In this document: positions 39,726 through 62,437 of the stretch, one piece after another
Numbering within the stretch: the first letter of the stretch is position 1
How the letters are laid out: every line of letters starts with the position of its first letter
Source of the DNA: Kiritimatiellia bacterium
GTDB taxonomy: Bacteria; Verrucomicrobiota; Kiritimatiellia; RFP12; JAAYLN01
Assembly: GCA_045603485.1 (NCBI GenBank)
Contig: JAZUMF010000005.1
Location: forward strand, 40,784-104,783
Direction of reading: 5' to 3'
Length of the DNA: 64,000 bases
Program-made: the position numbers and the translations under genes
Notes under the pieces: model-generated
What the model was told of the DNA's origin: nothing
Seen by the model: the letters and a program-made list of their open reading frames with translations, nothing else
Database searches by the model: none

Positions 39726-39735
39726 AATTTTTAAT

Positions 39736-44551: not shown

Positions 44552-45249
44552 CGATGGAGCATATCTTTTGCGGCTACGGCGATAGACCTGTACTCAATGA
44601 TGTCAGCCTTTCCGTTAATGAAGGTGAGGCTGTGCTGATCGCCGGGCCGAATGGCTGCGGAAAGTCTACGCTTTTGAAAGCTGTTTCAGGGGTGCTTAAG
44701 TTGTCTGCTGGCAATATCAAACTATCCGGAGAATCGCTCGCGGGACTTTCGGTCGAGCGGCGTATTCGATCGGGTATCGGTTATTTGCGCCAAAGCGATA
44801 ACATCTTTCCCGGTCAGACGGTCGAGGAGAATCTTGGGCTCGCCGGGATGATGCTTTCAAGAGCGATATATTTGTCCGCGAGAGATGAGATGTTGGAACT
44901 TTTCCCTTTTCTTAAAGCGAAACTTAACGATCGGGCAGGCTCATTATCTGGTGGGCAGCGTCAGGCACTCGCATTAGCGATGGTATTCCTAAGCCCTAAA
45001 AAGCTCTATCTTCTTGATGAGCCGACGGCAGGGCTTTCGCCTGCAGCCGCACAGGATATTATGGGTCGGGTACGTCAATTCGTGAAGGACGATGCGATGC
45101 GCTCGGTTCTTATGGTGGAGCATCGGCTTGATCTTTTGTCGTGGGTCGATCGTGCGGTCTTTCTTTCGCAGGGCAAGGTCAAATCCGAAATCGAGAATAT
45201 CGCGCTTCTTCAGGATGCCGAATGGCTCGCGAAGAATTATTTTGAGTAA
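44542..45249 (+). CDS. livF: Branched-chain amino acid ABC transporter ATPase LivF
   Basis: GPNGCGKST, LSGGQRQ, and LYLLDEP. Confidence 0.85.
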   Translation: MLLTMEHIFCGYGDRPVLNDVSLSVNEGEAVLIAGPNGCGKSTLLKAVSGVLKLSAGNIKLSGESLAGLSVERRIRSGIGYLRQSDNIFPGQTVEENLGLAGMMLSRAIYLSARDEMLELFPFLKAKLNDRAGSLSGGQRQALALAMVFLSPKKLYLLDEPTAGLSPAAAQDIMGRVRQFVKDDAMRSVLMVEHRLDLLSWVDRAVFLSQGKVKSEIENIALLQDAEWLAKNYFE

Positions 45250-45265
45250 AGTGGGAGAAGGCTGT

Positions 45266-46702
45266 ATGACGATGACACGGTTAGATGAATTACTGAGAAA
45301 CGGCGAAGGACTCGCCACAGAGTTCAAGCGGTGCTCGGGTAGAGTTGAGCACGATGTGTTTGAGTCTATCTGCGCATTCCTTAACAGGTTTGGCGGCGAT
45401 GTGTTACTTGGGGTCGAGGATGACGGGACTGTTGTCGGGATAAAAGGCGATCCGGTCGCATTGCGCAATAATATTATGAATATTGCGAATGACGGGAATG
45501 TTTTTGATCCGGTTGCATATATCGCGCCTGAGATTGTCGAGTATGATGGTAAGACGATTATCAGTGTTCATGTTCCTGCAAGCGGCGAGATTCATGCTTA
45601 TAAGGGCGTTGTTTATGATCGCAACGGCGATGCGGATGTGCGTGTGCGCTCGACGGCGGCCAAGGGTATGATGTTGCTGCGCAAACAGGGTGTTTTCACT
45701 GAACAGCGGATATATCCGTATGTTACAAAGGCCGATTTGAATCTTGCCGATCTAAAGCGGCTTCGCATTCGTGCGCAGAATAACAGCCGTGATGAAAGCC
45801 GCCATCCGTGGATGGATATGGATGATGATCAGCTTCTGCGTAGTGCCAAGCTGGTTGGCACAGATCGTGAATCTGGTAAGAGTGGTTTTAACCTTGCGGC
45901 CGTTATGCTGCTTGGAACGGAAGATGTTATAAAAGATATTTGCCCCGCATATGTTACGGATGCCATTTTGCGTGTTAAAGACATTGATCGTTATGACGAT
46001 CGCGATGTGGTCGGTGTTAATTTGATTGCGGCATACGACAGATTGATGGATTTTGCGAGAAAGCATCTTCCGGATCCGTTTTTTCTTGAAGGGGATATCC
46101 GTAAAAGTCTTCGTGAAATTATCGTCCGTGAAATGGTGGCAAATACGCTCATTCATCGCGAATTTACGAGTTCGCGCCCGGCGCGGTTTGTCATTGAACG
46201 CAGCCGAATGTATGTTGAGAATGCATGTCGAGCATCCTGCGGTGATGCATTGACGCCCGAGAATTTTGTCCCCGACCCAAGAAATCCCATAATAGCCAAC
46301 TTCTTCAGGGTGATTGGCTACGCTGACCAACTCGGCTCTGGTGTTAGGAATCTTTTCAAGTACGCCAAGGCATACGGCGGTTCTGATCCTAAGTTGAAGG
46401 ACGGAGACATATTTCGGATTGAGGTGTCGCTTCAGTCTGTAAAGGTGGGGGCGACTATGGAGAAAATGTCTGCTACTAGGGAGAAAACTAGGGAGGAAAC
46501 GACAGCTACTAGGGAGAAAACTAGGGAGAAAATCATTGCCTTCCTTTCAGATCATCCAAGTGCTACACAGGATGTCATAGCGAATTCGGTAGGGTTGTCA
46601 GTGAAAGGTGTGGAGTGGAACATAAAGGCGTTGAAGGATTCAGGACGCATCCGCCGTGTTGGCCCAGACAAAGGTGGACATTGGGAGGTTGTCTCGCAAT
46701 GA
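45266..46702 (+). CDS. AlbA_2 (Schlafen-like divergent AAA) / HATPase_c_4 / winged-helix ATP-binding regulator
   Basis: The N-terminus RLDELLRNGEGLATEFKRC...GGDVLLGVEDDGTVVGI matches the AlbA_2 (AAA_4) fold pattern. A C-terminal wHTH is present. An internal tandem duplication reads ATREKTREETT/ATREKTREK. Confidence 0.55.
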   Translation: MTMTRLDELLRNGEGLATEFKRCSGRVEHDVFESICAFLNRFGGDVLLGVEDDGTVVGIKGDPVALRNNIMNIANDGNVFDPVAYIAPEIVEYDGKTIISVHVPASGEIHAYKGVVYDRNGDADVRVRSTAAKGMMLLRKQGVFTEQRIYPYVTKADLNLADLKRLRIRAQNNSRDESRHPWMDMDDDQLLRSAKLVGTDRESGKSGFNLAAVMLLGTEDVIKDICPAYVTDAILRVKDIDRYDDRDVVGVNLIAAYDRLMDFARKHLPDPFFLEGDIRKSLREIIVREMVANTLIHREFTSSRPARFVIERSRMYVENACRASCGDALTPENFVPDPRNPIIANFFRVIGYADQLGSGVRNLFKYAKAYGGSDPKLKDGDIFRIEVSLQSVKVGATMEKMSATREKTREETTATREKTREKIIAFLSDHPSATQDVIANSVGLSVKGVEWNIKALKDSGRIRRVGPDKGGHWEVVSQ

Positions 46703-46934
46703 AAAAGCAGAAAGACATAGCTTTGCCGATGGATGGTGCGAAAGACTATCGCAAGTGGTGGTTTTGCGTTCTATAAGTATCGTTACGTTCTTTGCGTTAA
46801 AAAATCGAAGGCGGTGGAATGTGCGACATTATGAAGATTTTTGATATAATGTGCAACCGTAGACCGTCCTTTACGAGGCCCGCGAGTGGCGGGCAAAGGC
46901 GCTGGGAATCATTTAAGAATAAGGAGAAAGAAAG

Positions 46935-47333
46935 ATGAAAAATGGCATTAATCGTTCGACTGAGAAATTGCAGCATTATCCGTCGCCATTCTCAAAGCTT
47001 TTGCTCGTTCCGCAGGACAGTACGCTTTCGGTTGAGTCGGATCTTACTGGTGCAGTGGGCGTTTGCAAGAACGCGACTCTGGTCTGTGGCGGCTCTTGTT
47101 TCATTAACGTGGAGATTGGCGAGAAGGCTAAATTTATTTGCCGAGGAGCGTGTCTTGGAAATGTTGTGATTAAAGAGGGAGGCTTCTTTAAGTGTGATGG
47201 AGAAATGAGCGGCGACATCACAAACAACGGCGGTCGGTACGATATTCACGGATCCTTCTCCGGCGAGGTGTACGGTGAATTGGAAGAGGACGAAGAAGAT
47301 GATGATGATTACGACATAGATGAAGACAATTAA
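46935..47333 (+). CDS. Cys-rich beta-helix (bactofilin-like) protein with polyacidic tail
   Basis: Repeating G-x-V/C motifs (VCGGSCFINVEIGEKAKFICRGACLGNVVIKEGG). C-terminal EEDEEDDDDYDIDEDN. Confidence 0.35.
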   Translation: MKNGINRSTEKLQHYPSPFSKLLLVPQDSTLSVESDLTGAVGVCKNATLVCGGSCFINVEIGEKAKFICRGACLGNVVIKEGGFFKCDGEMSGDITNNGGRYDIHGSFSGEVYGELEEDEEDDDDYDIDEDN

Positions 47334-47352
47334 CGGGTACAAGAAAAGAACT

Positions 47353-47381
47353 TATTTTGATCCTCAACCGGCATGAGATTT
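47353..47381 (+). promoter_or_regulatory. Putative promoter with extended -10 (TGgTATAAT) upstream of ybjN
   Basis: tgg-tataat at 47373-47381. The -35 (tcaacc) is weak. Confidence 0.35.
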
Positions 47382-47551
47382 TTGGTATAATATTAGCCAA
47401 ACGATGAAACGCGGATTGACAGATTCTCGTACTTGGCATCATGCCGGCCTTGGCAAGGGCGGGCATTGGGAGACCGTGGTGCCATGAGACGAGATTGTCA
47501 AATGAACTCATTCTCTAAAACTAAAACCACAAACAAAAAGGATAAACAAAA

Positions 47552-48040
47552 ATGGATAAAATGGGTCAGGAACAGATAGTTGACGCAGTGCGCAACTGGC
47601 TTAAAGCTAACGACTGGTATTACGATTACAATGCCGAGAAGCATATGTTCAATATGAGCATCAGCCTCAAGAGCAAATTACAGTCAGGCAGGATATTCGT
47701 AGATGTCAAGGAAGACTGTTACGCGGTGTACATTTACGCGCCAATTAGGGGCAAGGACAATCTCGCCGAACTCACCAAGTACCTGACGATGGCCAACTAC
47801 GGCCTGCTCAACGGGAACTTCGAGCTGGACGTAGACGACGGCGAAATCCGCTACAAGACCTACGTGAATTGCGATGGGTTGCAGGAGCTCTCTTCAGCGG
47901 TTATCGAGGACAGCATTTACGTCGGCTGTGTTATGATGGATCGCTATGGCGACGGCATCGCCGCGCTTGCGCTTGGGTTCTCCGATGCCGACACGGAAAT
48001 CAAGAAGGCAGAAAAAAAGGACGAGTCTTCTGCTTCGTGA
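47552..48040 (+). CDS. YbjN-family protein (T3SS-chaperone-like putative sensory transduction regulator)
   Basis: A 162-aa acidic protein with the YbjN-like pattern: the DWYYDY region, then YAVYIYAP...LNGNFELD. Confidence 0.55.
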   Translation: MDKMGQEQIVDAVRNWLKANDWYYDYNAEKHMFNMSISLKSKLQSGRIFVDVKEDCYAVYIYAPIRGKDNLAELTKYLTMANYGLLNGNFELDVDDGEIRYKTYVNCDGLQELSSAVIEDSIYVGCVMMDRYGDGIAALALGFSDADTEIKKAEKKDESSAS

Positions 48041-48077
48041 AAGAATCTATTTTCTTTAGAAAGAAAGGTATGCAACG

Positions 48078-49199
48078 ATGAAGATTAAGAAGAACCTGTT
48101 ACTGGTCGTTATCCCAACGGTCACTGTTTTGGCATTTGTCATATTTTTTGCATGCCGAAACAGACAACCAGCTTCTGCCGATAATGCTGTCCAAGTTGGT
48201 GTGATTCTGCCTTTGACGGGCTCGCTTGGATATGAAGGAACTCGTATGAAAGATGCGATGGACTTGGCATTGTCCCAATTAGATGGTGAAAAACAACAAT
48301 GTTTAAAACTCAATTACGAAGACGGGAAGTTTTTGGTTCGCGATTCCATATCGGCGTTCAACAAATTAAACGAGAAGGGGATGGATGCATGGGTCATTTT
48401 TGGTGATACGCCGTTGTTAGGCATGAAAACTTTACTTGAGAAGACTGGAAAACCAGTTTTGTGCCTCATTGGAGCTCAGGATCTAGTCAAAGATTCGCAA
48501 ACGTTCTTCCATTTTTCGGGATCTATAACGTTGCCGGCTATTGAGAATGCTAAGTTTGCCAAGCGCAAGGGCGTGAAGACGGTCTCTTTAATTTATTTAA
48601 ATGAACAGATTGGTTTGGAGGTGAAGGGTGCTTTTGAACGGGAGTTTATAGACGAAGCACATAAGGTAGTCGCGTCAGAGGGATTTGACATGGGGCAACG
48701 AGCAATGAAGAGTTTGGTTGCGAAAGCTATTGCGCCTAATCCTGACGCAGTATTTGTTTATGGATATGCGACTCCATATATTGAAATCTTAAACGAAATA
48801 AAAAATGTTGGCTACCGTGGAATTGTTTTGACAGATGGAAATCTTGCCGCTGTAAAACCCGATCTTATCGATGGTGGGGAGGGCGTTTGGTATGCAGATT
48901 TTGATTTTGGCGATGGATGTGAGAACCCAGAGACTAAAAAGTTTCTGCATGACATGCATGACATCTATGGGGAGACTGCGAGTTCCTTTTCCGCATTTGC
49001 CTATGAAACGGTACGTGTGCTGTCGACAATTATCCATGATAAGGGTAAAACCCCTGCCGATATTCATAGCGGATTGTTGGCAATTAAGGACTACCACTCT
49101 ATTTTTGGTGTGATATCGTATCGTGACAATAGGGAACTTGAAATCCCAGTAGTGATTAAAAAGGCAACACGGGATAGCGCACAAGTTGTTAATGATTAA
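48078..49199 (+). CDS. Leu/Ile/Val-binding-protein-like periplasmic binding protein (ABC substrate-binding or sensor PBP)
   Basis: N-terminal TM/signal anchor, then a type-I PBP fold pattern (VQVGVILPLTGSLGYEG...). It lies immediately upstream of the giant gene and is coupled to it. Confidence 0.75.
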   Translation: MKIKKNLLLVVIPTVTVLAFVIFFACRNRQPASADNAVQVGVILPLTGSLGYEGTRMKDAMDLALSQLDGEKQQCLKLNYEDGKFLVRDSISAFNKLNEKGMDAWVIFGDTPLLGMKTLLEKTGKPVLCLIGAQDLVKDSQTFFHFSGSITLPAIENAKFAKRKGVKTVSLIYLNEQIGLEVKGAFEREFIDEAHKVVASEGFDMGQRAMKSLVAKAIAPNPDAVFVYGYATPYIEILNEIKNVGYRGIVLTDGNLAAVKPDLIDGGEGVWYADFDFGDGCENPETKKFLHDMHDIYGETASSFSAFAYETVRVLSTIIHDKGKTPADIHSGLLAIKDYHSIFGVISYRDNRELEIPVVIKKATRDSAQVVND

Positions 49200-49212
49200 G
49201 GAGGCTCCGCTC

Positions 49213-52200
49213 ATGGATGCAGGACCGGATGCACAGCATGGTGTAAATACAGGCGTTGTGGAATCCAAATACTATGTGGATGTATGGTTGCCGGACGCTA
49301 AAGACTATCCGGGGTTGAGAGGAGCAAGTCCCAAAGTCCAAGAGGCATTGGGTCTAGGCCTTGGACTTCCAGATAAACCTACAGTTGTTCCACTTGGTGA
49401 AATAGAAATTAATCTTAAGCCTCGGTTCTATAAGCGAAACGAAAAGAATCTTGATATTGATAGTGAATCGGTCGCGGCCATTTCGTTTTCGGAAGATTTC
49501 GCGAAGCAGTGTAATTCCAATGATGTGGCCGTTCTTGCAATGATGGGTGGGGTTCTTCCTGCAGGGAAGAATTTCTTTAGAATGGGTTTTTCCGTTGAAA
49601 CTATTGCGGCCATCATTGGAGATCAGATTATTAATGATAATGACGGACGGGTGTCTCATGTTTTTTTGATTCGTGTGGATAATGATCTTGGAAATGAATT
49701 TGAACGAGCATTCTCAAGGGCGGTGAATGCCCCAAACCAAGGGCGTTCTTTGGATATACTCAAGATTGATGAGAACGGTACCCCCATTACTAAGAAGATA
49801 CAAATTACGCCGACGGACGAACAGGTGGCACGGAATACCTCAACGAATGAGGGTGTTATTAGTAAATGGTTGACTAGTTGTATTAAAAATCCGGAACACC
49901 CAAGAAATCAAGGCCTGAGATCTGTTGTCATATATGGATATTGGGAGCAATATTGGAATTTCGTAATAGAAGTATTAAGATGCAAAGCCTTTTGTAACGA
50001 CGAAGATTGGTTATATGTTGAGTCAAATTACCCGCTACATTATCCCTTTATTCTTTATGAAGCACGACATGTAGATGATTTAGATCAAGATGATTTGCAA
50101 AATTTTACTAAAGAACGCACTGATGATATTATTCCGAGATCGGTGGAAATTACGAGTTCGGGAAAAAATAATAAAAGGATAATGGGAGATAAAAAACAAG
50201 AGAAAACAGGAGGTGAAAGTCCAGAGAAACCGCCGGAGAGTGTGTTTCACCCTCAGAAGGGGAATTTGCAAAACAACAATGAAGACGAAAGGGATTTCAA
50301 TATATTTAATGAAAAGAAAATGGCTCATGCGAGTACGATAGCTCATGCGATCAAGAATAGGGATGAACCTGAAGAAGAGCATCAAAAAGAATCTAAGGAA
50401 CTCAGTCAAGAAAAGCTTATGCCGAGGGAACTTAAGCGAATTCGTTGTATAACGGGTAGACTCGTTAATGATGGTGAAAGTAGTTTCATTACATTTGCGA
50501 AGGAAACGGTTCGCCTGCTTCGTGCTGCTATTAGGGACGCTCATGAAAAAAAGGGAAAAGCGCAAGATCGGACCATCAAATCTATACGAGAATGCATATG
50601 CAAGTTTTTGGCAAATAGTAAGTTCTATGCAGCGGAACATCTAGGGTCTTTCTTTTTTCGAAAAGATGGTGAATTGTTTTTCCCTCTCTACCTCTATAAC
50701 GGAAAGCTTGAGCGACAAAGAATCGTCAGAGAGTCTTGTTGTAAGGGTGATGAATTCACAAAGGAGGCTATAGCCGATCAATTACTACAACTATCTAATT
50801 CTCTGAACAAGATAACGCGGGCTGAAATCCCCCGCAACCTTAAGGTAGGCAATTCGGATGGTGCTAAGAAGGTATTTGAGGAATTCAGTAAAATAATTGC
50901 TGACATCTCAAAGGGAATTGAGATTAAGTTTGTAAGCTATTATCCTAATACAGAGCACCTGTTCTATACATGGACAGATACGCAGGAGGGAAATGTTGAT
51001 AAGACGGAGCGATTTATCAATGTTAGCATTTTTGATGATGTTTGTAAAAAAATACAAGGTGTAATCCAGATTAACTTAAAAGATTTTGATTTGGAAGATA
51101 ACGATGCATATAGAGTATATTTGGTCTACGAGAGGACTGAAAAAGTTTTTGATGCATTAACTCTGGCGGAGTGGTGGAATACACAAAGCAATGATTGCCA
51201 GGCGACGATTATAGCTGGGAATAAAGGTTGGGAGAGATGTCTATTGCCTGTTAAGGCGGTTGTGTTTGCCAAATCAAGGATTGGGAAACAAGACGGTCAG
51301 ACGGATGAGGGTATGTCTGAAAACGAGTATAAAGATATTATAGACAATGCCAATTATGCACACTACTACCGCGACTGCGACGGCCATGAAAGCAAGTTCA
51401 AGTTTGATGAGATTTTAAGTGGTCTTTGTAAACTTCTTGGGTGTAGTGGAGACAACGGCAATTCAGAATCAGATGCCCGTTTTTTATATTATATTCCTGA
51501 ATATATTCCGGAAGACAACAAACCTGAAGGCAATAATAGTTACAAGATAGGTGGGCAAGGCGGAATCGTTATGGCGACTTGTTGCAAGTTGTCTTTGTTT
51601 GATTTGCAAATTGTTGAGAATATGGTCTCCCACATTTTTTCTAAGCTAAAAACATGTTTGGCAGAACATGATGTCCTCCTTTCAAATATAAAATCTGCCA
51701 TTGGCTCCATAATGTCTCGCAATGGTTCTCATAACATTGGTAGCCATGTATTGGCGGCACTGTCGCACAATGTGGGAACATTGCCGGATGATAGGGTGTT
51801 ATATCAGTATATTCAGCAGCGGATGGATTATATTGCAACGGTGACGACGGACTTTCCGACATGGACGCAACCGACAATGTTTGTAGCCGATATGATGAAA
51901 ACTTTTTTATCGCAGAGGCATTTATTAGATCATATTGTGGAGAGCGAAGGGTTGCATGCATTTCAGTTTCAAAATCCTAATATGACGGATGAGGAGTGGG
52001 CGGCTCAAGAAAACTGTGTAAAGATTTATGTTAGGAAGTTAGATGGTGATGGAAGTGTAAAGGACTTCATTGAATATGAAAAGGGTAAACGAGAACTTCC
52101 CATTGATTTGACTAATGATGTTGATTTAGCAATTCCCGGGGGAATAATTGGTGAACATGCGTTCTATACGATTCTTGAAAATATAATTCGGAATGCCGCG

Positions 52201-54687
52201 AAACATTCTTGGGCGAAGATTAAACAATGGCAAATAAGGCAAAACGAAATTGAGTTGCAGTATAATAATTTGGAGCTTTTCATTGATTTTGAAGAAAAGG
52301 ATGATGAGGTTAAGTATAACGTTTATGCAAAGTTGCCGATGGCTCAGGTAGTTGTGGAAAAATCTAAAGCTGACAATAAATTATGTCAGAAGGTGATTGC
52401 TTCAGAACAACTGATTAAATGGAAGGAAAAGTTTGATGATATGGGTGTAGTGAAAGCAAAGGAGGAAAATGCTTTTAAGGAGCTGCCAGATTATGAACAG
52501 GAACAGGTCAAACTACATTTGGCTAATCTCAAAGACGATCCACTTAAAAAATGGGTAGATAGATATGACAAACAAGGCGGATTGACATCTGATGAGCAGA
52601 AGGAGTTTGATTCATTGGCGATTCATCATAAGCAACAAGTTATGTTGGCGAGGCCTTTTATTGATTCGCAGGGAGCACTTCGTCGTGAGAATTGGGGTAT
52701 GGCAGAAATGAAGATATCGGCAGGATATCTCGCTGGCGAATCTATTGAGGCGATAGGGGGTATTGGAGACAAAAAAGGAAGTAATGAAATTATAACGCCA
52801 CGCATCAAATCAGAAAAGGTCAAGAGGAAATGTATAGAATCAGGGGAAAAAGTAACAGAAATTGAGGTCGAAGAACTATATTTAGGCTATGAATTTTCTA
52901 TTGCCAAACCCAAGGAAATATTGATTATAGTTGCGGAGGAGCTGAATAGGGAAGGAAAAGACGATGAATGGGGTAGTGAAAATATTCGTAATGAATTAAA
53001 AAAGCATGGGATTTTTGTTAAGACAGTTAGCGAGATAAAACAGGAGAACCGTCTTAATTACAGGTATGTAGTTCATTATAATGCACGTGAGTTGTTTGAT
53101 AAAAATTATCATGTTAAAGATGATGTTTTATTGCCGTTTAGAGTGTTAAGTGTGGCGGATATTGAGGATGAAAGGCTTAAAGATTTTATTCCGACAATAG
53201 ATATAAGTAAACTAAAAGAGTGTTTCGAGAAGGGCACTGAAGATCCGAAAAACGGAATTCAAAAACTTGTCTACGATACTTATCTTAAACATTTTTTGTC
53301 ACAACGGAGTGTAGATAATATTGGTCTTTTGGTTGCGATAAATGAAAATGAGAAATCTGGCGGAAATAGTTTGATTTCGGATGCGGATATTCTTGAATTG
53401 ATGCTTGAGCAGAATTTTGCTGTGTGCGTAGCTCAATACAAGGAATTTGCAGCTAACGAAGATAAGATTATTAAGTGTTTAGAATCGATTCGTCATAAAA
53501 GTAGTGCTAAAGATACAGTAATAAAGTTTAAGCACTTCTCAAATAAGACGATAAGGGAATTGATTGCACAACGTATGTGCGATTGGGCTGGAAAGTCTAA
53601 TGATTCATGGATTCCAATAGTTGAACATTTGCGTAAAAAGTATTTCGTATCAGATGCTGAGAGCGAAACTTCCAATGAGCTTAAGCCAAGTAATAATGAA
53701 ATATCAGTTGATTTTGCAGCAAGTGTAAATTCTCTGTCGCAAAAACATCCGATTGATGATTTTATCCGTTATGTGGAATCGATTTTTGAAAATACAAAGA
53801 AACTGTTTAAACAGTATGAAGAGCAGATTGTGACGTTGCCGGCAGGGTATAAGGTTCAATCTTCTGATGTTGGAGAAGGGGCGTCGCTTATAGACGGGAT
53901 TAAGATTATTACATCAGCAGAGAAAGAAGAACTTGAAAAAGAAAAAGATCGCCACTGGATTGGGTATCGCCGTCATGCTCATACGCTACCTGTTGATGAT
54001 TCCAAGAGACTTTATGTTGAGCCGTTAAGCGGAACTCAGACATACTTGTCACAATTGGCGAGAGTAAAAACCGATCTTGGATTGCAAATGCGTCTTATAG
54101 AAAATGGCCTTATGCGTATTCTTGTTCTTGATGAACGAGTTGCGAAGTTCCTTCGTGAGCATCAAAAGGAAGTTGGCCCGCATTATAAGTCGATGAATAT
54201 CCATGTCATTGATCACGAATGGGTTGTTGCTGGTGGAGAAACTCCTCCTGAGGGTTTTTACGGAAAGTTTACTTCTGTGCACAAAGAAGCGTTGAAATCA
54301 TTTGTAAAACCGAAAGATTCTAATGATGGTGAGAATAACCAAAATGGGAATGCCGATGTGAGCTCGAATTCGAACCTTACTATGTTTGATGATGTTGACA
54401 TCTTAATCGTTCATCAGGGGATTCTGGATAAATGGTACCCTGAATTCAAAAATCGTAAGGATATGTGGAAGTTATTGGAAGGGTTCAAGAAATTAGTGAA
54501 ATATGTTGTCGTGACTACTGGTCGAGGGACTCCGGAGAACATACCTGAAGAGACTCATCTGTTGCCGTTCGCCGTCGTTGAATCTACACTCTTTAAGAAA
54601 TATCCAGAGAAGTTGATCTTAACAGATACTATCATGAATGTCCTTCCTGTTGGGAAGAAGAACGACAACTCTGGAGGCCAAAAATGA
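49213..54687 (+). CDS. Giant (1824 aa) cytoplasmic protein with a histidine-kinase-type GHKL ATPase N-box and a degenerate receiver-like C-terminus; AT-rich
   Basis: ATG 49213 lies 10 nt after AAGGAGG, which overlaps the PBP stop. N-box-like LENIIRNAAKHS at about 52176-52210. An upstream H-rich motif SRNGSHNIGSHVLAALSH at about 51712-51765. C-terminus RILVLDERV...DILIVHQGILD...YVVVTTGRG. No Walker A and no TM helices found. The nucleotide composition is visibly AT-rich compared with the flanks. Confidence 0.6.
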   Translation: MDAGPDAQHGVNTGVVESKYYVDVWLPDAKDYPGLRGASPKVQEALGLGLGLPDKPTVVPLGEIEINLKPRFYKRNEKNLDIDSESVAAISFSEDFAKQCNSNDVAVLAMMGGVLPAGKNFFRMGFSVETIAAIIGDQIINDNDGRVSHVFLIRVDNDLGNEFERAFSRAVNAPNQGRSLDILKIDENGTPITKKIQITPTDEQVARNTSTNEGVISKWLTSCIKNPEHPRNQGLRSVVIYGYWEQYWNFVIEVLRCKAFCNDEDWLYVESNYPLHYPFILYEARHVDDLDQDDLQNFTKERTDDIIPRSVEITSSGKNNKRIMGDKKQEKTGGESPEKPPESVFHPQKGNLQNNNEDERDFNIFNEKKMAHASTIAHAIKNRDEPEEEHQKESKELSQEKLMPRELKRIRCITGRLVNDGESSFITFAKETVRLLRAAIRDAHEKKGKAQDRTIKSIRECICKFLANSKFYAAEHLGSFFFRKDGELFFPLYLYNGKLERQRIVRESCCKGDEFTKEAIADQLLQLSNSLNKITRAEIPRNLKVGNSDGAKKVFEEFSKIIADISKGIEIKFVSYYPNTEHLFYTWTDTQEGNVDKTERFINVSIFDDVCKKIQGVIQINLKDFDLEDNDAYRVYLVYERTEKVFDALTLAEWWNTQSNDCQATIIAGNKGWERCLLPVKAVVFAKSRIGKQDGQTDEGMSENEYKDIIDNANYAHYYRDCDGHESKFKFDEILSGLCKLLGCSGDNGNSESDARFLYYIPEYIPEDNKPEGNNSYKIGGQGGIVMATCCKLSLFDLQIVENMVSHIFSKLKTCLAEHDVLLSNIKSAIGSIMSRNGSHNIGSHVLAALSHNVGTLPDDRVLYQYIQQRMDYIATVTTDFPTWTQPTMFVADMMKTFLSQRHLLDHIVESEGLHAFQFQNPNMTDEEWAAQENCVKIYVRKLDGDGSVKDFIEYEKGKRELPIDLTNDVDLAIPGGIIGEHAFYTILENIIRNAAKHSWAKIKQWQIRQNEIELQYNNLELFIDFEEKDDEVKYNVYAKLPMAQVVVEKSKADNKLCQKVIASEQLIKWKEKFDDMGVVKAKEENAFKELPDYEQEQVKLHLANLKDDPLKKWVDRYDKQGGLTSDEQKEFDSLAIHHKQQVMLARPFIDSQGALRRENWGMAEMKISAGYLAGESIEAIGGIGDKKGSNEIITPRIKSEKVKRKCIESGEKVTEIEVEELYLGYEFSIAKPKEILIIVAEELNREGKDDEWGSENIRNELKKHGIFVKTVSEIKQENRLNYRYVVHYNARELFDKNYHVKDDVLLPFRVLSVADIEDERLKDFIPTIDISKLKECFEKGTEDPKNGIQKLVYDTYLKHFLSQRSVDNIGLLVAINENEKSGGNSLISDADILELMLEQNFAVCVAQYKEFAANEDKIIKCLESIRHKSSAKDTVIKFKHFSNKTIRELIAQRMCDWAGKSNDSWIPIVEHLRKKYFVSDAESETSNELKPSNNEISVDFAASVNSLSQKHPIDDFIRYVESIFENTKKLFKQYEEQIVTLPAGYKVQSSDVGEGASLIDGIKIITSAEKEELEKEKDRHWIGYRRHAHTLPVDDSKRLYVEPLSGTQTYLSQLARVKTDLGLQMRLIENGLMRILVLDERVAKFLREHQKEVGPHYKSMNIHVIDHEWVVAGGETPPEGFYGKFTSVHKEALKSFVKPKDSNDGENNQNGNADVSSNSNLTMFDDVDILIVHQGILDKWYPEFKNRKDMWKLLEGFKKLVKYVVVTTGRGTPENIPEETHLLPFAVVESTLFKKYPEKLILTDTIMNVLPVGKKNDNSGGQK

Positions 54688-55280
54688 AATATTATGTCTT
54701 TATCGCAAGAGACGAGGAAGAGTTTTCGCGCTATCCTCAAAGTGGGTTTCAGGAGCTGAAGAGGGATTTTGCAAAAACGATTCGCCATAAGGAGATGGGA
54801 GACTCATATTTATTGATTATATCAAGCGATGTGAAGCCTAAGAATGCAGAATCGGATGAAGATGTTAAGATGATGTGTTTTAAGGTTGCAGCTGCGATAA
54901 AGTTAGTAAATACAAATTACGATTATGCAGCAGGTAATGATTGTGTGCATATTTTTGTTCATGTGGGTGGAGAAGGTAGTTGTGGCTTAGGGAAAATGGA
55001 GGAAAGTCTAAAAAAGAAGGTTGGAGAAATAAAGGAAAATTGGAAAGTTTTTCTTTTAAGTTCAAGCTGGCGCTGGAGAATTGATGTCAAGCAGTCTATG
55101 ATTAGATTGCCTAATAGAGAAGGGGAACTTGATGTTCTTGTAAAGCGGTGCGAGATGGACATTGCCGCTGAGATTTTAAAAGGATTTAAGGCTCGTTATA
55201 GTACTACTGAGAAAAAAGATTGCTATGATAAAATCTGTGAAAAGCTTTCCATTGTTAAGATTGAGGAGAAGAGAAAATGA
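54684..55280 (+). CDS. Small hypothetical protein (198 aa), possibly a degenerate receiver/flavodoxin-like fold
   Basis: ATGA overlap with the upstream and downstream genes. Alternating beta-alpha pattern: YYVFIARDEE, YLLIISSD, VHIFVHVGG. No recognisable catalytic motif. Confidence 0.45.
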   Translation: MKYYVFIARDEEEFSRYPQSGFQELKRDFAKTIRHKEMGDSYLLIISSDVKPKNAESDEDVKMMCFKVAAAIKLVNTNYDYAAGNDCVHIFVHVGGEGSCGLGKMEESLKKKVGEIKENWKVFLLSSSWRWRIDVKQSMIRLPNREGELDVLVKRCEMDIAAEILKGFKARYSTTEKKDCYDKICEKLSIVKIEEKRK

Positions 55281-58200
55281 GCAATGGCAGAAAATTAAAT
55301 CTTTTTATTTTTGACTTGGCACAGCATGGAGAACTGACAAACCTAGTACTGTGGCAAGTAGCTAAGATGTTTGAGATGAGGTGTGGTATCTGTGTTGCTT
55401 CTTATTCATGGTGTGCGCCTTTAAAGAAAGAGAAATTTATTCCTCTATTTCTTTGCAATTCGTATGATGAGATTAGGGCGCATGGTTTTAATGTGCCAAG
55501 AGAATTTGTCTTTGAGGTTGGATTGAATCCTAATCCTAATTATATTGATGATCCAGATAATCAACCAGAGATGTTGTGTGAGATCTTAGGGGATAAGATA
55601 GAAGATCGGTTAAGTCTGTATAAGGAGTTAGAAATAGGTGTAAGTTTTGAGGATGTTAAAGACTGGTGTGTCGGTGCGTTTCGTAGATATTTGTTTATGG
55701 ATGATGATGTTCACGGAACATCGGGGACTTTTTCTATTTCGGAATTAATGAAATGCAACAAAGAAACAGGCTTGAATGTTGATGATAAATATTGGCAAAA
55801 ATGGTTTGGGGAATTCGGTGATGACAAAAATAAATTTAACAGAGAGATGTTGCGGGCTAGATTCGGAGTTGGCGTGAAAAATTCAAGTGACAGTACAACG
55901 CAAAATCCAAAGGAAGATGATCCGCTCAGAAATTATAAGGATGTATTGTCGGTTGTGTTTGAGGAAGAATTTAGGTGCATAAAAGCAGACGTTATTGAGA
56001 ATCCGGGCGAAAGCTATCAAAGAGTAAAAGATTTTTTTGAGAAGAAGTTTCCAAGTCAGCAAGGTCTTGCATTAAAATTTATTTCTCCATGCGGAAAGAT
56101 ACGTGTACTTGTTGTAGATGATAATGCTACAGCCGAAGTTGAAAGTCTTAAAAGTAAAGAATCGTTGTCTAATATTTTTGATTTTGCTCCGTTGGATTTG
56201 AAGAAGCGAGATGATGAATCTTCGAATCAGTTTATAAAAAGATCCATAGGCGAGATAAAAAATAAATCTAAGGAATGTGTTGATGTAATTTTATTAGATC
56301 TAAGCTTAGGCGAGGCGACAGGTTCTGATTTGACTGGCTATCATCTGATTAAGAGATTTAAGCAATGGATGCCGACGGCCTATATCATTATTTATTCTGA
56401 ACATGAGGATATGGGGCATATTGTTCGTGCGTTCAGAGAGGGTGCCGATTGGTTTTTGAAAAAGAGCGAAGCTCAAGAAAAACTTGCGCGTCATTTTATT
56501 TCGTTGATGGCGAATCGCAAATGGAGAAAAGAATTCGGCGTCATCAGACCGAAATATGTTCTTGATATAAAAGGCAAGGATGAAAATTTTATCGCCAAAT
56601 TCAATGTAAAAGAGGTATGGCAATATTTGACAATAAAAAGTCTGGAATTATTGCCGGGACATTATATCAAGATAAATAAGATGGGGGGCGGTATCAGTTC
56701 GGCTGTCACATTCCGAGCGCAGAAAGGCATTACAAGAGATACTGAAGATAATCAGGCGCCCGTAATCATCAAGATAGATTCTGTTTTTAATACGAGGATG
56801 GAATATGAGCGTTATTTCCGCTTCATTCGACCGTATATTGCCAATGAGTCGGGGCGGATAGAGAAGCGTGAAATAGTTCTCAATAGGGATAGCGCCGCGA
56901 TTGTTTATACATTTACAGGGCGGCGAGATGCTGCACATGAACTTAACACCTTGGACGAACTGCTGCGCCGCGATATGTTATCGCGTGAAACTTGCGATTA
57001 TGAAAAATATCGCAAGATGTTTAATGCGCTGTTTGATGAGATCACAGCGCGTCTGCACAGGGTGACTCCAGTCGCAGAATTCAGGGATTTAAAGACAGAT
57101 CCGGAAGAGTTGTCGGAGTTTTCTGATTATCCCAATCGCACATTTGGAGAATTGGAGAGTGATTCTATATCATCCTCCGATCAAGGTCATAAATCTTGGT
57201 TTTTCTCGAATTTTACATATAGAATGCCGATAGAGAGTGTTGCTGAAAAGTTTATAATAAGTGAAGGCTCAAGCAATCCGAATGAGGTATATGAAGTTTA
57301 TGGTATCCAGAAGGATGACTTAGGTAAGAATTCCGCTAAATACCCTTATACTTATGTTATTGAATGTCAGCGATATAAGATTAAAACTGAAAATGATAAT
57401 AAAGAGTTGCATCAAAAGGTGTTGCTGAAAGGCGATTTAGCGTCATATTACGCCCGTTTTAGGACACATCTTTGGCCGGGAATGTTGCTGTCGATAAAAC
57501 TGGGGGAAGGTCAAACATTAAATGAGAACGAACTTATGTCTTGGTGCTTTTGTTTCTGCGCCAATAAGAATTTATATCAAATCCGCGCTGAAAAGACAGA
57601 AGATGGCTCTAAACAAGAGGGATGTTTCCGGATATCTAAAAAGCTTTATAATAAGATGGCCGGATGGTTTAAGGATAAAGAAAACCGATACTTAATAACA
57701 GTTCGTGACGCGCTGAAAAAACTTGTCGATGAGGAGCCGCACAGATTTGTGTGTCCGGTTGGTATTGTGCACGGCGATTTAAATCTTAAGAACATTATGA
57801 TTGAATCCCGGGTCAATCCACCGAAAGAAATTCAAGCAGACATAACGAAGGTTTTGTCTGATGTGTGGCTTATAGACTTTGCTCGGACGCGGCGAGATGT
57901 CGTAGCACATGATTTCAATGTCGCTTTTACATCAGTACTTCCGTTGCTCTTTCAGCCGGATCTCGTTGGGACGCATGAGAAGGGTAAACCGTTTGAGCAG
58001 AATGATGAGCAGAAGAAATACGTCGAAGAATTAGATGAAAAACTTGAACCGTATTTGCGCCATGTTCTCTTTGACAAGTATGATACTTTGTCGGATTTGT
58101 TTGCGGAAGATCAGCGACTTGTTTTCATGTACAAGATATTAAGAAGAATCCGTAAAGCGGCACTTGCGACGGGGATGTCGGAGGATATGTATCTACTGAC

Positions 58201-58354
58201 GACAGCACTGACATGTTTGTATTCGTTTAAACTGTATTTAAAACAAGGAATGCCGGAAGCCGCAACAGCACTTGTAATGGCGGGATTGCTTTGCGTGGAG
58301 AAGTTGAATCCGCCAGATGACTGTTTCGAAGCATCTAATCAGAAAACATTATGA
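55277..58354 (+). CDS. Receiver (REC) domain fused to a eukaryotic-like Ser/Thr protein-kinase-like domain (1025 aa)
   Basis: REC: VLVVDDN (56101-56127), VILLDLSL, IIIYSEHED, DWFLKKS. Kinase: G-loop KMGGGISSAV, beta3 VIIKI, catalytic loop HGDLNLKNIMI (57769-57803), and DFG-like LIDFARTR. Confidence 0.7.
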   Translation: MSNGRKLNLFIFDLAQHGELTNLVLWQVAKMFEMRCGICVASYSWCAPLKKEKFIPLFLCNSYDEIRAHGFNVPREFVFEVGLNPNPNYIDDPDNQPEMLCEILGDKIEDRLSLYKELEIGVSFEDVKDWCVGAFRRYLFMDDDVHGTSGTFSISELMKCNKETGLNVDDKYWQKWFGEFGDDKNKFNREMLRARFGVGVKNSSDSTTQNPKEDDPLRNYKDVLSVVFEEEFRCIKADVIENPGESYQRVKDFFEKKFPSQQGLALKFISPCGKIRVLVVDDNATAEVESLKSKESLSNIFDFAPLDLKKRDDESSNQFIKRSIGEIKNKSKECVDVILLDLSLGEATGSDLTGYHLIKRFKQWMPTAYIIIYSEHEDMGHIVRAFREGADWFLKKSEAQEKLARHFISLMANRKWRKEFGVIRPKYVLDIKGKDENFIAKFNVKEVWQYLTIKSLELLPGHYIKINKMGGGISSAVTFRAQKGITRDTEDNQAPVIIKIDSVFNTRMEYERYFRFIRPYIANESGRIEKREIVLNRDSAAIVYTFTGRRDAAHELNTLDELLRRDMLSRETCDYEKYRKMFNALFDEITARLHRVTPVAEFRDLKTDPEELSEFSDYPNRTFGELESDSISSSDQGHKSWFFSNFTYRMPIESVAEKFIISEGSSNPNEVYEVYGIQKDDLGKNSAKYPYTYVIECQRYKIKTENDNKELHQKVLLKGDLASYYARFRTHLWPGMLLSIKLGEGQTLNENELMSWCFCFCANKNLYQIRAEKTEDGSKQEGCFRISKKLYNKMAGWFKDKENRYLITVRDALKKLVDEEPHRFVCPVGIVHGDLNLKNIMIESRVNPPKEIQADITKVLSDVWLIDFARTRRDVVAHDFNVAFTSVLPLLFQPDLVGTHEKGKPFEQNDEQKKYVEELDEKLEPYLRHVLFDKYDTLSDLFAEDQRLVFMYKILRRIRKAALATGMSEDMYLLTTALTCLYSFKLYLKQGMPEAATALVMAGLLCVEKLNPPDDCFEASNQKTL

Positions 58355-59031
58355 CACCTAAACGCATAATCCTTGTTCGCCACGGTGAATCGGAGGCGAA
58401 TGTCGATCCGACGGTGTATGCCCGCGTGCCGGATTGGCGGATTGCACTTACAGCAACTGGTGTTGAGCAGGCTCGGGATGCTGGGCGGAAGATTGCGGGA
58501 TTGATTGGCGGCGAGTCGTTCGGGGTGTTCAGCTCGCCGTATGTGCGAACGGAACAGACCAAGGACGCGATGCTGGAGGGAATGGGGCGCGAGCCGGTGT
58601 TTGACTACCAAGATCCAACTTTGCGCGAACAGGAATACGGCAACATGCCGCCGACAGATGAGAACAATGCGAACCGTGAGTTCCGCAAGAAGTTCGGCTA
58701 CTTTTTCTACCGTTTCCCGAACGGTGAATCGTGCGCCGATGTCTCGGATCGTATCACGCTCTTCCTTGACTCCCTCTATCGCCGGTTTGAGCGCGACACG
58801 TGTCCCGAGAACATCATCATCGTTTCCCACGGCACGGCTATCAAGTGCTTCCTTGCTAGATGGTATCATTGGTCGATTGCAAAGTTTGATACCATTCCCC
58901 AGTTGCCAAACTGCCATGTTAGTGTGATGAGACGAATTGATGGGGATGTGCAACGCGCTTCTTCGCAGTTTGAATTGCATGAACCATTTGAAACAGTATG
59001 CTGTTTCTCAATGAAAGGTAAAGAACAATGA
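58351..59031 (+). CDS. Histidine phosphatase superfamily (PGM/SixA branch) protein
   Basis: N-terminal RIILVRHGESEANV (RHG catalytic motif) and a downstream SHG. ATGA overlap with the kinase gene. GC-rich, like the host. Confidence 0.75.
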   Translation: MTPKRIILVRHGESEANVDPTVYARVPDWRIALTATGVEQARDAGRKIAGLIGGESFGVFSSPYVRTEQTKDAMLEGMGREPVFDYQDPTLREQEYGNMPPTDENNANREFRKKFGYFFYRFPNGESCADVSDRITLFLDSLYRRFERDTCPENIIIVSHGTAIKCFLARWYHWSIAKFDTIPQLPNCHVSVMRRIDGDVQRASSQFELHEPFETVCCFSMKGKEQ

Positions 59032-60935
59032 CAATTGTTCAAGATCAGTTTGACGCATCGTCCTTCCAAGTTCCGCCGAAAGTCGGGAAGTCTGGAATGT
59101 TGGGCGACCTGTCGGGTGCCCTGCAGGTGTTAAACCGTGTTGCGTTTAGCATTGGATGGATACTGTTGGCCATAGCGGCTCCGCTTGCATGGGGCTTCTT
59201 GCCGTTTGGTTATGAGAAACTTAAGGAGAGCGCCGAAATCAGCGCGGTGCCATCGCTGACAGTGTGTATGCGAATGACTTTCGCTGCTTTATTCTCGCTT
59301 GCTGTGCTTGCCGTCTGGGTGGCTATAGGCAAGGCTGTGTATCGTGGGTGTGACGGAGACGTGCCTTGGTTTAAGAAGATGTTACGAGAAACGCGGGAAG
59401 CCTTAAAGCGTCATTGGCGGCCACTCCTTGCGTTGCCGGTTCTTTATGTTGTCGCGCGCATATTGGAAATGGAATTGTTGTTGAACGCATCGCGGATTGG
59501 GGTGGAAGGACCATTCGGCGGCGCATTGGAGCAATACGGATATTTTCTGGGATTGCTTTTGATAATACTTTTGCCTACGGCCAGATTGCGTAATTTTTCC
59601 ATCGTGGATATGCTTGTGTGGACAGTTACTGTGGTTATGGTTTTCGCTAGCGCAGTTCTGAATCTGACTGCTCGCGTCCATGTTGCCCACTGGAATTCTG
59701 TTTACATAATGACCGTCATGGCGTTTGCCGTGGCTGTGATAGGGCTTTTCTCTGCACTTGTAAAGACGGCAAGTGGCTTTGCGGCGGAGTTCTCGGAAGA
59801 TGTCAGCAAACATCGTTTTGCTCCAGCCATATTTGCCAGCATGGTCGTGAACATGGTAATGGCTGCAGGGGCGGCTGTGTTGTCTATTCTGTATCTGATT
59901 GTCTATTTTGCTGCAAAGGGCTGGAAGTGGATGTCGTATGGCGATAAGATCAAATATTCGATGAGCGATGCATTGCCCGCATATTTCTCAGATGGAAAAT
60001 GGTTCTGGTTTTTGATTGTAATTGTTGTTGTGGGATCGTTGGTTGCGCCGATTTGCCAGTTGGCGGGTGTAGCGCTACACGATGCGGCAATAAGGAATCG
60101 CAAATTATCGAAATATGGCATATCTGGCAGGGACTGGCTGATAGTGTGTGGCGGATTTGAGCCTATGTTTGTGGTCCTGATCGGCATTTGTTCTGGTGCA
60201 ACATTCATAAGCAATTTCTCGATAGCGCTCTCGTTTGGCCTTGTGCTTGCGATTGGCTTGCTCAGGGTCGTGAAGGTGTGGAGTGCGAAGAATACAGTCC
60301 TCAGGAATGGTATCTTTACCCATATTCGTGGCAGTTCAAGAGGCCCTGATTCGACCATGTCTGAGGATGATTTGCTTCTGCGCGCGGAAAAACTAGCTCT
60401 CCTGAAATTCTATGACAAGCGCCGCGAATTTAGGGGAACAAGGTTGGGTGTGTGGCCCAAACCCGCTTTGCTGCGTGATCTTATCGACAGGCATGATGCG
60501 GTTAAGGATTTCTTATCTGCTGCTACAACGCAGGAAGTTCTATGTGGGAGAGAGCCTTTTTATACGCCGCTTATAGGCGGTGAAGTCTTCTTCACGCAGG
60601 ACGATCCTTTCACTCATGATGTTCTCTCTGCCCAATTCGCTTGGCTCAAACGGCGGCATCCGGATGTTGATGTGACGTCCTTCAGCTATTTGCTAAAGCG
60701 TTTTTGCAGTGAATCCGCTGGATGGAATGGCAAGTTGGGGTTGAAGAGCCTGGCTTGTGCTGGCGAACCGAATGCAACGCCATATATAATCATCCCGAGA
60801 AACCTGAAGGCGGCGACGGGCTTTTGTAGTGACTGGAACAAACTCCTTGCAGTCCTTCATGGAATCGTTGACAGAGAGGAAATACCTCAATATGTCAACG
60901 CCTTGATGTTGGATGCAAAGAACATTGATGACTGA
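59028..60935 (+). CDS. Polytopic membrane protein (about 8 TM) with a 300-aa C-terminal cytoplasmic domain of unknown function
   Basis: Hydrophobic helices throughout the first 330 aa. ATGA overlap with the phosphatase gene. Confidence 0.5.
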   Translation: MTIVQDQFDASSFQVPPKVGKSGMLGDLSGALQVLNRVAFSIGWILLAIAAPLAWGFLPFGYEKLKESAEISAVPSLTVCMRMTFAALFSLAVLAVWVAIGKAVYRGCDGDVPWFKKMLRETREALKRHWRPLLALPVLYVVARILEMELLLNASRIGVEGPFGGALEQYGYFLGLLLIILLPTARLRNFSIVDMLVWTVTVVMVFASAVLNLTARVHVAHWNSVYIMTVMAFAVAVIGLFSALVKTASGFAAEFSEDVSKHRFAPAIFASMVVNMVMAAGAAVLSILYLIVYFAAKGWKWMSYGDKIKYSMSDALPAYFSDGKWFWFLIVIVVVGSLVAPICQLAGVALHDAAIRNRKLSKYGISGRDWLIVCGGFEPMFVVLIGICSGATFISNFSIALSFGLVLAIGLLRVVKVWSAKNTVLRNGIFTHIRGSSRGPDSTMSEDDLLLRAEKLALLKFYDKRREFRGTRLGVWPKPALLRDLIDRHDAVKDFLSAATTQEVLCGREPFYTPLIGGEVFFTQDDPFTHDVLSAQFAWLKRRHPDVDVTSFSYLLKRFCSESAGWNGKLGLKSLACAGEPNATPYIIIPRNLKAATGFCSDWNKLLAVLHGIVDREEIPQYVNALMLDAKNIDD

Positions 60936-60954
60936 CGGCGCAAGGAGTGTTATC

Positions 60955-62436: not shown

Positions 62437-62437
62437 G

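Follow-up and report, generated by a model that had tools for sequence, protein, structure and literature searches.

Does a variable, AT-rich locus in the chromosomes of gut Kiritimatiellae serve nutrient sensing, cell-cell signalling or defence? The question is raised by three genes, here called A, B and C, in a 64,000-nt stretch (the window) of contig JAZUMF010000005.1 from a Kiritimatiellia bacterium (assembly GCA_045603485.1, positions 40,784 to 104,783); coordinates below are those of the window. An initial annotation, made from the letters alone, had placed there a stand-alone three-gene cassette, possibly a defence or stress-signalling system moved by horizontal transfer. The three open reading frames (ORFs) are as it had placed them: gene A (49213-54687, +, 1824 aa), gene B (54684-55280, +, 198 aa), the small partner protein of A, and gene C (55277-58354, +, 1025 aa), with ATGA stop/start overlaps seen at both the A/B and the B/C junction. 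Gene A starts at an ATG 7 nt 3' of an AAGGAGG motif, a longer TTG start at 49186 being less likely. Hydropathy over 19-residue windows stays below the transmembrane threshold throughout A, B and C, and all three proteins are therefore predicted to be cytoplasmic, in agreement with what had been proposed for A. Our results suggest that A, B and C are probably the variable core of a two-component phosphorelay operon, widespread in Kiritimatiellae, present in all related loci examined and linked to a LIV-type ABC importer. This core is fast-evolving and shuffled by recombination, and its modules are swappable.

Sequence searches with A returned zero matches in Pfam, NCBIfam, PADLOC and PDB sequences, and the profile of its family had no match among PDB sequences at E<=10. 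The family itself is large: a single-sequence word-index search found 7 clusters, a profile of the A core (residues 760-1824) found >524 clusters, and phmmer against 1.84 billion representatives found 2450 clusters (50% identity) at E<=1e-3, with 372 at E<=1e-30. This number is far below that expected with classical kinases, which are therefore not being matched, and the matches obtained are all unnamed or annotated as hypothetical protein [Kiritimatiellae]. A literature search on the motifs, the family or Kiritimatiellae kinases like A found no paper.

The fold of A was predicted with AlphaFold2 for residues 775-1325 on a 70-sequence alignment (pLDDT 82, pTM 0.78); in the model, a long helical hairpin leads into an alpha/beta sandwich. 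When this model was compared with the PDB by Foldseek, the top 50 matches were all (50/50) DHp+CA sensor histidine kinases. The best match was WalK (4u7o, E 6e-5, probability 1.00), and YycG, HK853, CpxA, ZraS, ShkA, KinB, DesK, CheA and BceAB-S (8g3a) were also matched. By its modelled DHp+CA fold and its genomic context, A is a histidine kinase, though a very divergent one. In the model, residues 795-877 (51595-51843, +) form a DHp-like helical hairpin (model helices 21-63, 66-77 and 84-103) and residues 885-1232 (51865-52908, +) form the CA domain, of the GHKL ATP-binding type, as delimited from model strands and helices, Foldseek and column counts.

Conservation across 70 relatives of A coincides with the residues of catalytic type. 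The H-box AIGSIMSRNGSHNIGSHVLAALSHNV (residues 829-854, nt 51697-51774) is essentially invariant in 70/70 relatives; within it, the motif SRNGSHNIGSH on the first long helix carries H840 and H845, both invariant in 70/70, and either is a candidate phospho-acceptor. The N-box ENIIRNAAKH (residues 989-998), which the initial annotation had read as being of histidine-kinase type, is invariant, and the fold prediction bears out that reading. The wider N-box (residues 969-1000, D969..A.PGG..G.HAF.TI.EN..RNAAKH.W) and a G2-like motif, ENWGxAEMKISAGYL...IGG (residues 1159-1183), are essentially invariant. D1025 is near-invariant and lies 31 residues past N994, which we take to be the N-to-G1 spacing of HK853. 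The strand expected to carry the G1 motif lacks the canonical DxGxG: position 1039 is T in 32 sequences, A in 12, D in 12 and N in 8. The ATP-lid region holds a variable insert of 60-230 aa.

Upstream of the kinase core, residues 1-775 (49213-51537, +) form a variable N-terminal module, presumed to be the input, in which no domain is recognisable: it has no Pfam or PDB match and is present in few close relatives only (7 close homologues). Other members of the family carry SAM-dependent or N6/N4 DNA methyltransferase domains as N-termini, or shorter unrelated ones, and profile comparison detected no similarity between the window N-terminus and those of the methyltransferase type.

Gene C would provide the matching receiver. 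Its N-terminal domain (residues 1-270; 55277-56086, +) has no Pfam match, and W130, R136, D142, H146 and G147 are invariant in 29 homologues; comparison of this domain with a 264-280-aa environmental protein was not significant. It is followed by a canonical REC domain (residues 275-405; 56099-56491, +) with acceptor D341, which scores 36.2 bits against Pfam Response_reg (PF00072; cut-off 30.2), matches PDB receivers and reaches 98.8% in hhalign against a general REC profile. D281, D282, D341, S374 and K396 are invariant in the 29 relatives, so that the textbook receiver previously noted in C stands.

The rest of C, residues 469-1010 (56681-58306, +), is a TCAD9 (PF19974) protein-kinase-like domain (E 2.9e-20; 73.3 bits, cut-off 40) with a variable insert of ~290 aa. 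Its kinase motifs are a G-loop, K499, E509/E511, HGDLNxxN (832-839) and IDFA (866-869), and the G-loop, K499, E509/E511, H832-G-D834, N839 and D867-F-A are invariant in the 29 relatives. TCAD9 is counted among the protein-kinase-like families. The weak secondary matches of C are to EcKL, APH and Kdo kinase, which are small-molecule kinases; Pkinase (PF00069) profiles gave no match, and the sole likeness to eukaryotic protein kinases was to the AAK1 catalytic loop at E ~0.8. The earlier description of a Ser/Thr kinase thus holds as far as a protein-kinase-like domain is concerned, whereas Ser/Thr specificity is unproven because TCAD9 groups with APH/EcKL-type kinases and not with Pkinase. Judged from its sequence, C may best be described as a receiver-gated, kinase-like enzyme of APH-like fold.

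The distribution of gene B was determined in a survey of 52 loci by local hidden Markov models (HMMs), in which counts were restricted to loci with enough flanking sequence. Of the 37 loci that extend far enough downstream, 19 have a B-type protein after A, and weaker profile matches add further environmental loci. B can be a separate protein (198-371 aa) or form the N-terminal part of a fusion with C, as in L001, L002, L004 and P0021-P0035. Environmental and gut B match each other by hhalign at 93.6% (E 2e-7), and the environmental loci include those with an NtrC-type regulator. The motifs of B are VFIArD..EF.rY, hFhH93WGG, SS.R and I..P, and His93 in hFhHWGG is its sole invariant residue. 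Profile and sequence searches gave no Pfam or PDB match. Against REC, hhalign gave 0.2-0.6%, compared with 98.8% for the positive control; with no Pfam match either, B was rejected as a receiver or a DtcB-like buffer.

The C-terminus of A raises a similar problem. Residues 1630-1824 (54100-54684, +) form a conserved flavodoxin-like alpha/beta domain, in which successive strands end on D1640-E1641, H1734, T1768-T1769 and L1784-P1785. The positions correspond to the hallmarks of CheY, except that the acceptor Asp is replaced by His and the Lys by Leu. The initial annotation had called this end receiver-like; hhalign against receivers gave only 1.6-5.9%, the C receiver serving as the 98.8% positive control, and a test for a hybrid kinase could not demonstrate a REC domain in which strand 3 ends on an acceptor Asp. 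The claim is not sustained, and on sequence grounds the domain may at most be a receiver-like fold that is very distant or has been repurposed. A small alpha/beta domain directly after CA (residues 1234-1325; 52912-53187, +; model elements E462-E539) is possibly a degenerate receiver, with 6.8% against REC. Comparisons among the two A domains, B and the N-domain of C, and with REC, gave <=6.8%, and an HMM of the A C-terminal domain had no match to B. The proposal that B and this C-terminal domain are demonstrable paralogues or receivers was dropped and is kept as motif-level speculation only.

Two conserved domains with a histidine at a critical position nevertheless invite another explanation, in which A would not be a conventional autokinase but a scaffold, a phosphatase or an atypical phosphodonor, and phosphoryl groups would pass via H1734 of A and H93 of B to D341 of C in a multi-step relay, comparable to the phosphotransferase system. 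The absence of the G1 DxGxG from A fits this idea, as do the CheY-hallmark positions of the A C-terminal domain with its invariant His instead of Asp, the single invariant residue of B, a His that follows a hydrophobic strand predicted from sequence and is followed by Gly, and the conservation of both domains across all lineages. On the other side, the N-box, D1025 and the G2-like motif show the conservation found in active GHKL enzymes, the H-box does not vary and has a ratio of non-synonymous to synonymous substitution rates (dN/dS) of 0.03, and neither B nor the A C-terminal domain has statistical homology to receivers. We consider such a relay highly improbable.

The gene neighbourhood points to a phosphorelay coupled to a transporter. 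The trio is not the stand-alone cassette that had been described: it is the variable core of a larger operon comprising LivHMGF, a binding protein, A, B, a regulator and His_Phos_1. LivH, LivM, LivG and LivF-type ABC importer genes (42005-45249, +; Pfam BPD_transp_2 and ABC_tran) have host-like GC and form a constant upstream frame of the locus, LivF being 63-72% identical between loci. The gene preceding A encodes an exported periplasmic binding protein (Peripla_BP_6; 48078-49199, +; Pfam E 6.2e-26), whose hydrophobic segment at residues 3-29 would be an anchor or a lipoprotein-like signal. Gene C is coupled by a further ATGA overlap to a His_Phos_1 (PGM-like) phosphatase gene of host-like GC (58351-59031, +; Pfam E 2.6e-30). 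All genome matches to the window are metagenome-assembled genomes of gut Kiritimatiellae/Kiritimatiellia. In the survey, 42 of 44 loci encode a Peripla_BP_6 protein immediately before A, and 34 of 44 have LivHMGF-type genes further upstream, distant loci included; L012, for example, keeps Liv genes at 32-39% identity to those of the window. The 4-nt overlap between C and His_Phos_1 is kept in L004, L007, L009 and L012.

The outputs downstream of A are diverse. Among 30 loci with >=5 kb downstream, 19 encode a REC-containing protein after A: REC+TCAD9 in 14 and other receiver proteins in 5. In environmental loci L032, L034, L037, L045 and L047, A-B is paired with an NtrC-type REC-Sigma54_activat-HTH_8 regulator, which points to ordinary signal transduction as the ancestral role. 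After A-B in the sediment-type locus L036 comes a 1201-aa REC-adenosine deaminase (11267-14872; C-terminal deaminase Pfam E 2.7e-33), itself followed by a His_Phos_1 gene, and a 1155-aa homologue lies beside the NtrC-type regulator of L047 (15538-19005). The remaining 11 of the 30 loci have neither output by HMM: 7 have no recognisable output and 4 have a 940-1180-aa 4Fe-4S protein with several ferredoxin domains (L008 9667-13197; L024 13619-16501; L027 9782-12607; L033 9537-12842). The L008 4Fe-4S protein has an N-terminal receiver-like pattern, VLIIDD...LTLVDSDL, missed by Pfam, and in L008 and L024 the 4Fe-4S gene is followed by BtpA, Maf and a fused RpoB/RpoC gene. Environmental loci L034, L037, L041, L045 and L047 open with a 120-130-aa single-domain receiver just before LivH (Pfam Response_reg E 3.8e-17 in L034), a gene that gut loci lack; L022 has a receiver entry of this environmental type at 5430-5816 (-).

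Compared with NtrB/NtrC and AauS/AauR-type systems, A thus shares the DHp+CA fold, the DHp His, the N-box and an adjacent receiver regulator, and its environmental relatives even share the REC-Sigma54_activat-HTH_8 partner. It differs in having no HisKA/HATPase_c match and no G1 box, in its 60-230 aa ATP-lid insert and in ~600 extra C-terminal residues, after which comes B; moreover, the output in the window is a kinase-like enzyme and not a transcription factor. Genetic ties between a kinase and an ABC transporter or binding protein are known from BceAB-BceS, PstSCAB-PhoU-PhoR, LuxP-LuxQ and TorT-TorS. Kinases of the BceS, PhoR, LuxQ and TorS types are membrane proteins that touch the transporter or binding protein, whereas A has no membrane segment and has an exchangeable cytoplasmic input module.

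A sensor kinase followed by a receiver-effector is best read as two-component logic, and a signalling role is favoured as the primary one because of the fixed chromosomal site, the linkage to a transporter and the NtrC-type relatives. In the phosphorelay that we propose, a ligand would be captured by the exported binding protein and handled by LivHMGF, and the cytoplasmic N-terminal module of A would report the ligand or transport itself. The DHp-CA core of A would then autophosphorylate on H840 or H845 and the phosphoryl group would move to D341 in the receiver of C. Phosphorylation would switch on the TCAD9 (APH-like) kinase domain, which would phosphorylate a protein or a small molecule, and the translationally coupled His_Phos_1 phosphatase would reset the system. 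B may act as an adaptor or modulator between A and C.

Windowed GC is 0.36-0.41 across 50-58 kb and ~0.49 on either side. By gene, GC is 0.375-0.403 in A, B and C, whose GC content at third codon positions (GC3) is 0.36-0.38; GC is 0.51-0.55 in the LivHMGF genes and 0.48-0.53 in the genes downstream of C, and GC3 is 0.51-0.65 in the Liv genes, the phosphatase gene and later genes (0.51-0.61 in the downstream ones). The trio is AT-rich as first noted, but the block starts one gene earlier, with the binding-protein gene (GC 0.426, GC3 0.41). The same is seen in the gut loci measured, in which binding protein, A, B and C have GC3 0.31-0.50 (0.58 in one C) and host Liv genes 0.53-0.84.

Comparison with related loci shows that the block is a mosaic. 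The window has 86-90% nucleotide similarity to L001, L006 and L008 from 47524 through the binding protein, the A N-terminus and the DHp segment. The blastn alignments end at 51963-51981, A residues ~918-923, for L001, L002, L003, L006 and L008 (at 51970-51977 for L001, L006 and L008), at 51864 for L004 and at 51923 for L007; we take 51963-51981 as the left recombination boundary, across which protein identity in sliding windows falls from 0.8-0.9 to 0.1-0.5. Between it and 58351 there is no nucleotide alignment with these loci. Similarity restarts exactly at 58351, so that the right boundary is the start codon of the phosphatase, and His_Phos_1 is 72-91% identical in relatives. Against L006 and L008, respectively, identity is 72% and 68% in LivF and 94% and 95% in the binding protein, and up to 97% in A residues 1-500; past residue 900 of A it is ~26-34%. 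L006 has a C with 32% identity, and L008 has an Fe-S protein instead of C. The opposite holds for L012: identity is 91% for C and for the phosphatase, 78% for B and 68% for the A core but only 27% for the binding protein, and the A N-terminus is different and shorter. These opposite patterns indicate that input and output modules reassort around the invariant DHp-coding segment.

The DNA encoding DHp (51697-51981) retains 74-82% nucleotide identity even where the rest of A is ~30% identical at the protein level, a degree of conservation that is extreme where kinase-regulator specificity is usually set. The dN/dS is 0.03 in the DHp region and 0.14-0.28 elsewhere, values that point to functional proteins under purifying selection. 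Simple diversifying selection was considered and is not supported, since gene-wide dN/dS is well below 1.

Horizontal movement is real in the form of allele and module replacement by recombination at a fixed chromosomal site. This is the part of the earlier proposal of a transferred defence or stress cassette that survives; no mobile-element signature was found in 44000-64000, where there were no significant flanking repeats, and no integrase among the ORFs scanned against Pfam (some small ORFs lay outside that scan). The only tRNA genes are tRNA-Lys and tRNA-Pro at 39650-39812, ~8 kb upstream, and searches of viral contigs found no relatives of A or C.

Discrete alleles at a fixed site recall polymorphic communication systems. 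The locus could serve cell-cell signalling or kin discrimination in a pherotype-like manner: a strain-specific peptide or metabolite would be captured, imported and sensed by the co-varying A N-terminus, and balancing selection would maintain the allele classes, as for ComQXP or Agr. The binding protein and the A N-terminus indeed form discrete allele classes, 94-97% identical where LivF is 68-72% and 23-30% identical between classes (the latter measured on the binding protein), the ABC importer is tightly linked, and radical SAM/SPASM genes, possible peptide maturases, recur in L009, L012, L036 and L045. As in ComQXPA of Bacillus, divergent allele classes occupy one site, breakpoints fall inside the kinase gene and the flanks are conserved; in ComQXPA, however, the ComP sensor varies and the kinase core is conserved, whereas here DHp is invariant and both the input and the output from CA to the regulator vary. 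Variation of the output half (A core, B and C) is not required by pherotype models, the window showed no gene for a precursor peptide or a synthase, the usual ligands of Peripla_BP_6 proteins are amino acids or amides and not peptides, and the SPASM enzymes may be sulfatase maturases in this sulfatase-rich clade. We therefore find a kin-discrimination role very doubtful.

The radical SAM genes, several with SPASM domains, lie in or beside the locus (L009 7585-8727; L012 16009-19172; L036 5582-6814; L045 6850-8037), and in L009 such a gene is preceded closely by a 68-aa ORF. The enzymes could serve in the maturation of peptides or of sulfatases.

The gene order of A, B and C had suggested the anti-phage system Detocs. 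In that system, DtcA combines TPR with a canonical kinase, DtcB consists of a lone receiver, the Asp of which is essential, and DtcC usually carries a PNP ATP nucleosidase, PNP being found in 80% of systems (bioRxiv 10.1101/2023.01.24.525353). The order of kinase, small protein and REC-effector and the swapping of effector domains between alleles are alike. The likeness does not extend to membership: A is silent in Pfam, B was rejected as a receiver, TCAD9 takes the place of the effector, and the site is a fixed one in the chromosome, next to an ABC importer. A, B and C matched no family at E<=1 in PADLOC-DB v2.0.0, a release not checked for Detocs models.

TCAD9 itself leads to the vWA-MoxR-VMAP ternary systems, with which it is associated in a figure legend of PMC10910872; the source description of these systems (Kaur et al. 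2020, PMC7159879) mentions an APH-like kinase only and does not use the name TCAD9. The C domain falls in PF19974 with intact catalytic residues, as in those systems, but in C it would be gated by a receiver and is partnered with a histidine kinase. Pfam scans found no MoxR, vWA or VMAP among the ORFs tested at 42-64 kb or in related loci.

A Detocs-like conflict system would work as follows: A would sense an infection cue and phosphorylate C, and the C kinase would abort infection by modifying targets of the host or the phage; an adenosine deaminase or an Fe-S enzyme would take over as effector in sister alleles, and B and the phosphatase would buffer accidental firing. Several of our results agree with this, namely the AT-rich, mosaic block from binding protein to C in the gut-clade loci measured, with independent recombination of input and output, the great diversity of the A family (2450 clusters at 50% identity), the swapping among TCAD9, REC-adenosine deaminase and Fe-S effectors, the DNA or SAM methyltransferase domains in some A N-termini, the TCAD9 connection to conflict systems, and PDC-S02/YhcG (E ~1e-120) and AlbA_2/Schlafen-type genes in the slot between LivF and the binding protein. 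They are countered by the missing PADLOC matches, the failure of B as a receiver, the fixed site adjoining an ABC importer in the genomes sampled, NtrC-type transcription factors in relatives, purifying selection throughout, the lack of relatives on viral contigs and a window allele without a classical toxic effector. Defence is thus an unlikely primary function of the locus.

The accessory genes in the slot between LivF and the YbjN/binding-protein genes differ from genome to genome (window 45092-46702; L002 1789-3252; L004 1042-2571; L007 460-1842; L009 7585-8727; L006 5064-8072), and the slot looks like a small variable or defence-type hotspot. The window gene encodes an AlbA_2/Schlafen-HATPase_c_4-winged helix-turn-helix protein, with a tandem 33-nt direct repeat (85% identical) at 46454-46519 in its 3' part. 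L004 and L007 have PDC-S02/YhcG nuclease-like genes, identified by PADLOC, L009 has its radical SAM gene, with a weak pVip match, and L006 and L010 have tubulin-like proteins.

The phosphorelay that we favour also has difficulties to face. No HisKA or HATPase_c profile, nor any other Pfam or NCBIfam kinase profile, matches A at E<=1, and with the canonical G1 box missing at its expected strand, ATP binding by A may be atypical. A has no membrane segment though the binding protein is exported, so that coupling to the input would have to be indirect. A kinase model leaves the roles of B and of the conserved A C-terminal domain without explanation, and a substrate of the TCAD9 domain in C is only hypothetical. 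Block-wide AT-richness, hypervariability and module swapping are unusual for nutrient sensing, and genes in the adjacent variable slot resemble defence candidates. All these points weigh against the proposal. In a more novel reading, gut Kiritimatiellae would have turned an ancestral transporter-coupled A-B/NtrC system into a hypervariable cassette for immunity or kin discrimination. Input modules (binding protein plus A N-terminus) and enzymatic outputs (REC-gated protein-kinase-like kinase, adenosine deaminase or Fe-S enzyme) would reassort from genome to genome around the DHp joint, and the His-bearing B (H93) and A C-terminus (H1734) may relay; we regard this composite scenario as speculative and rather unlikely.

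The surroundings of the locus are those of an ordinary chromosome, with MetRS, Mfd, an ABC-F protein, tRNA-Lys, tRNA-Pro and LivHMGF. A small YbjN-like protein (47552-48040, +; Pfam YbjN E 2.6e-05), encoded before the binding protein, is 78-81% identical in L001, L006, L007 and L008 and belongs to the same shared block as the binding protein and the A N-terminus. Beyond the phosphatase, constant downstream genes (59028-63094, +) encode a 635-aa multi-pass membrane protein (59028-60935), which continues the ATGA chain, and proteins of 507 aa and 232 aa, the genes of which overlap as well. The 507-aa protein (60913-62436) has ~3 transmembrane segments by hydropathy and a weak TrkA_N-like Pfam match. 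The 232-aa protein (62396-63094) has a nucleotidyltransferase-like motif, GGALGY...NYDIDLRL (GG...DxD), and no significant match in a PDB sequence search. It is 67-78% identical in relatives, far above the conservation of A or C, and is fused in L004, L006 and L012 to the C-terminus of a protein of the 507-aa (transmembrane plus TrkA_N-like) type; the L006 fusion has a weak NTP_transf_2 match only. The neighbouring ORFs scanned against Pfam revealed no further kinase or regulator, and a promoter and terminator scan gave no useful excess over the shuffled expectation. Further upstream, tRNA-Lys(UUU) and tRNA-Pro(UGG) are adjacent, ~2.2 kb before the Liv operon, where GC steps up from 0.43 to 0.56, and two large ORFs have no Pfam match at E<=0.001 (21120-24356, +, 1078 aa; 36919-39375, -, 818 aa).

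Three aspects of this system are new: a kinase family that is invisible to profiles and has a partner, B, a TCAD9 kinase that appears to be receiver-gated, and shuffling around an invariant DHp joint. Gene A defines a large histidine-kinase family, of at least 2450 clusters at 50% identity, that escapes current profile libraries and is characterised by an invariant H-box, the lack of a G1 box and the small partner protein B. The architecture of C suggests that TCAD9/APH-like kinases can come under receiver control; until now, TCAD9 was known from predicted conflict systems only. Finally, the invariant DHp-coding segment appears to act as a recombination joint between input and output halves across divergent genomes, and testing the locus would show how two-component specificity survives module swapping, and whether gut Kiritimatiellae use it for nutrient sensing, cell-cell signalling or defence.

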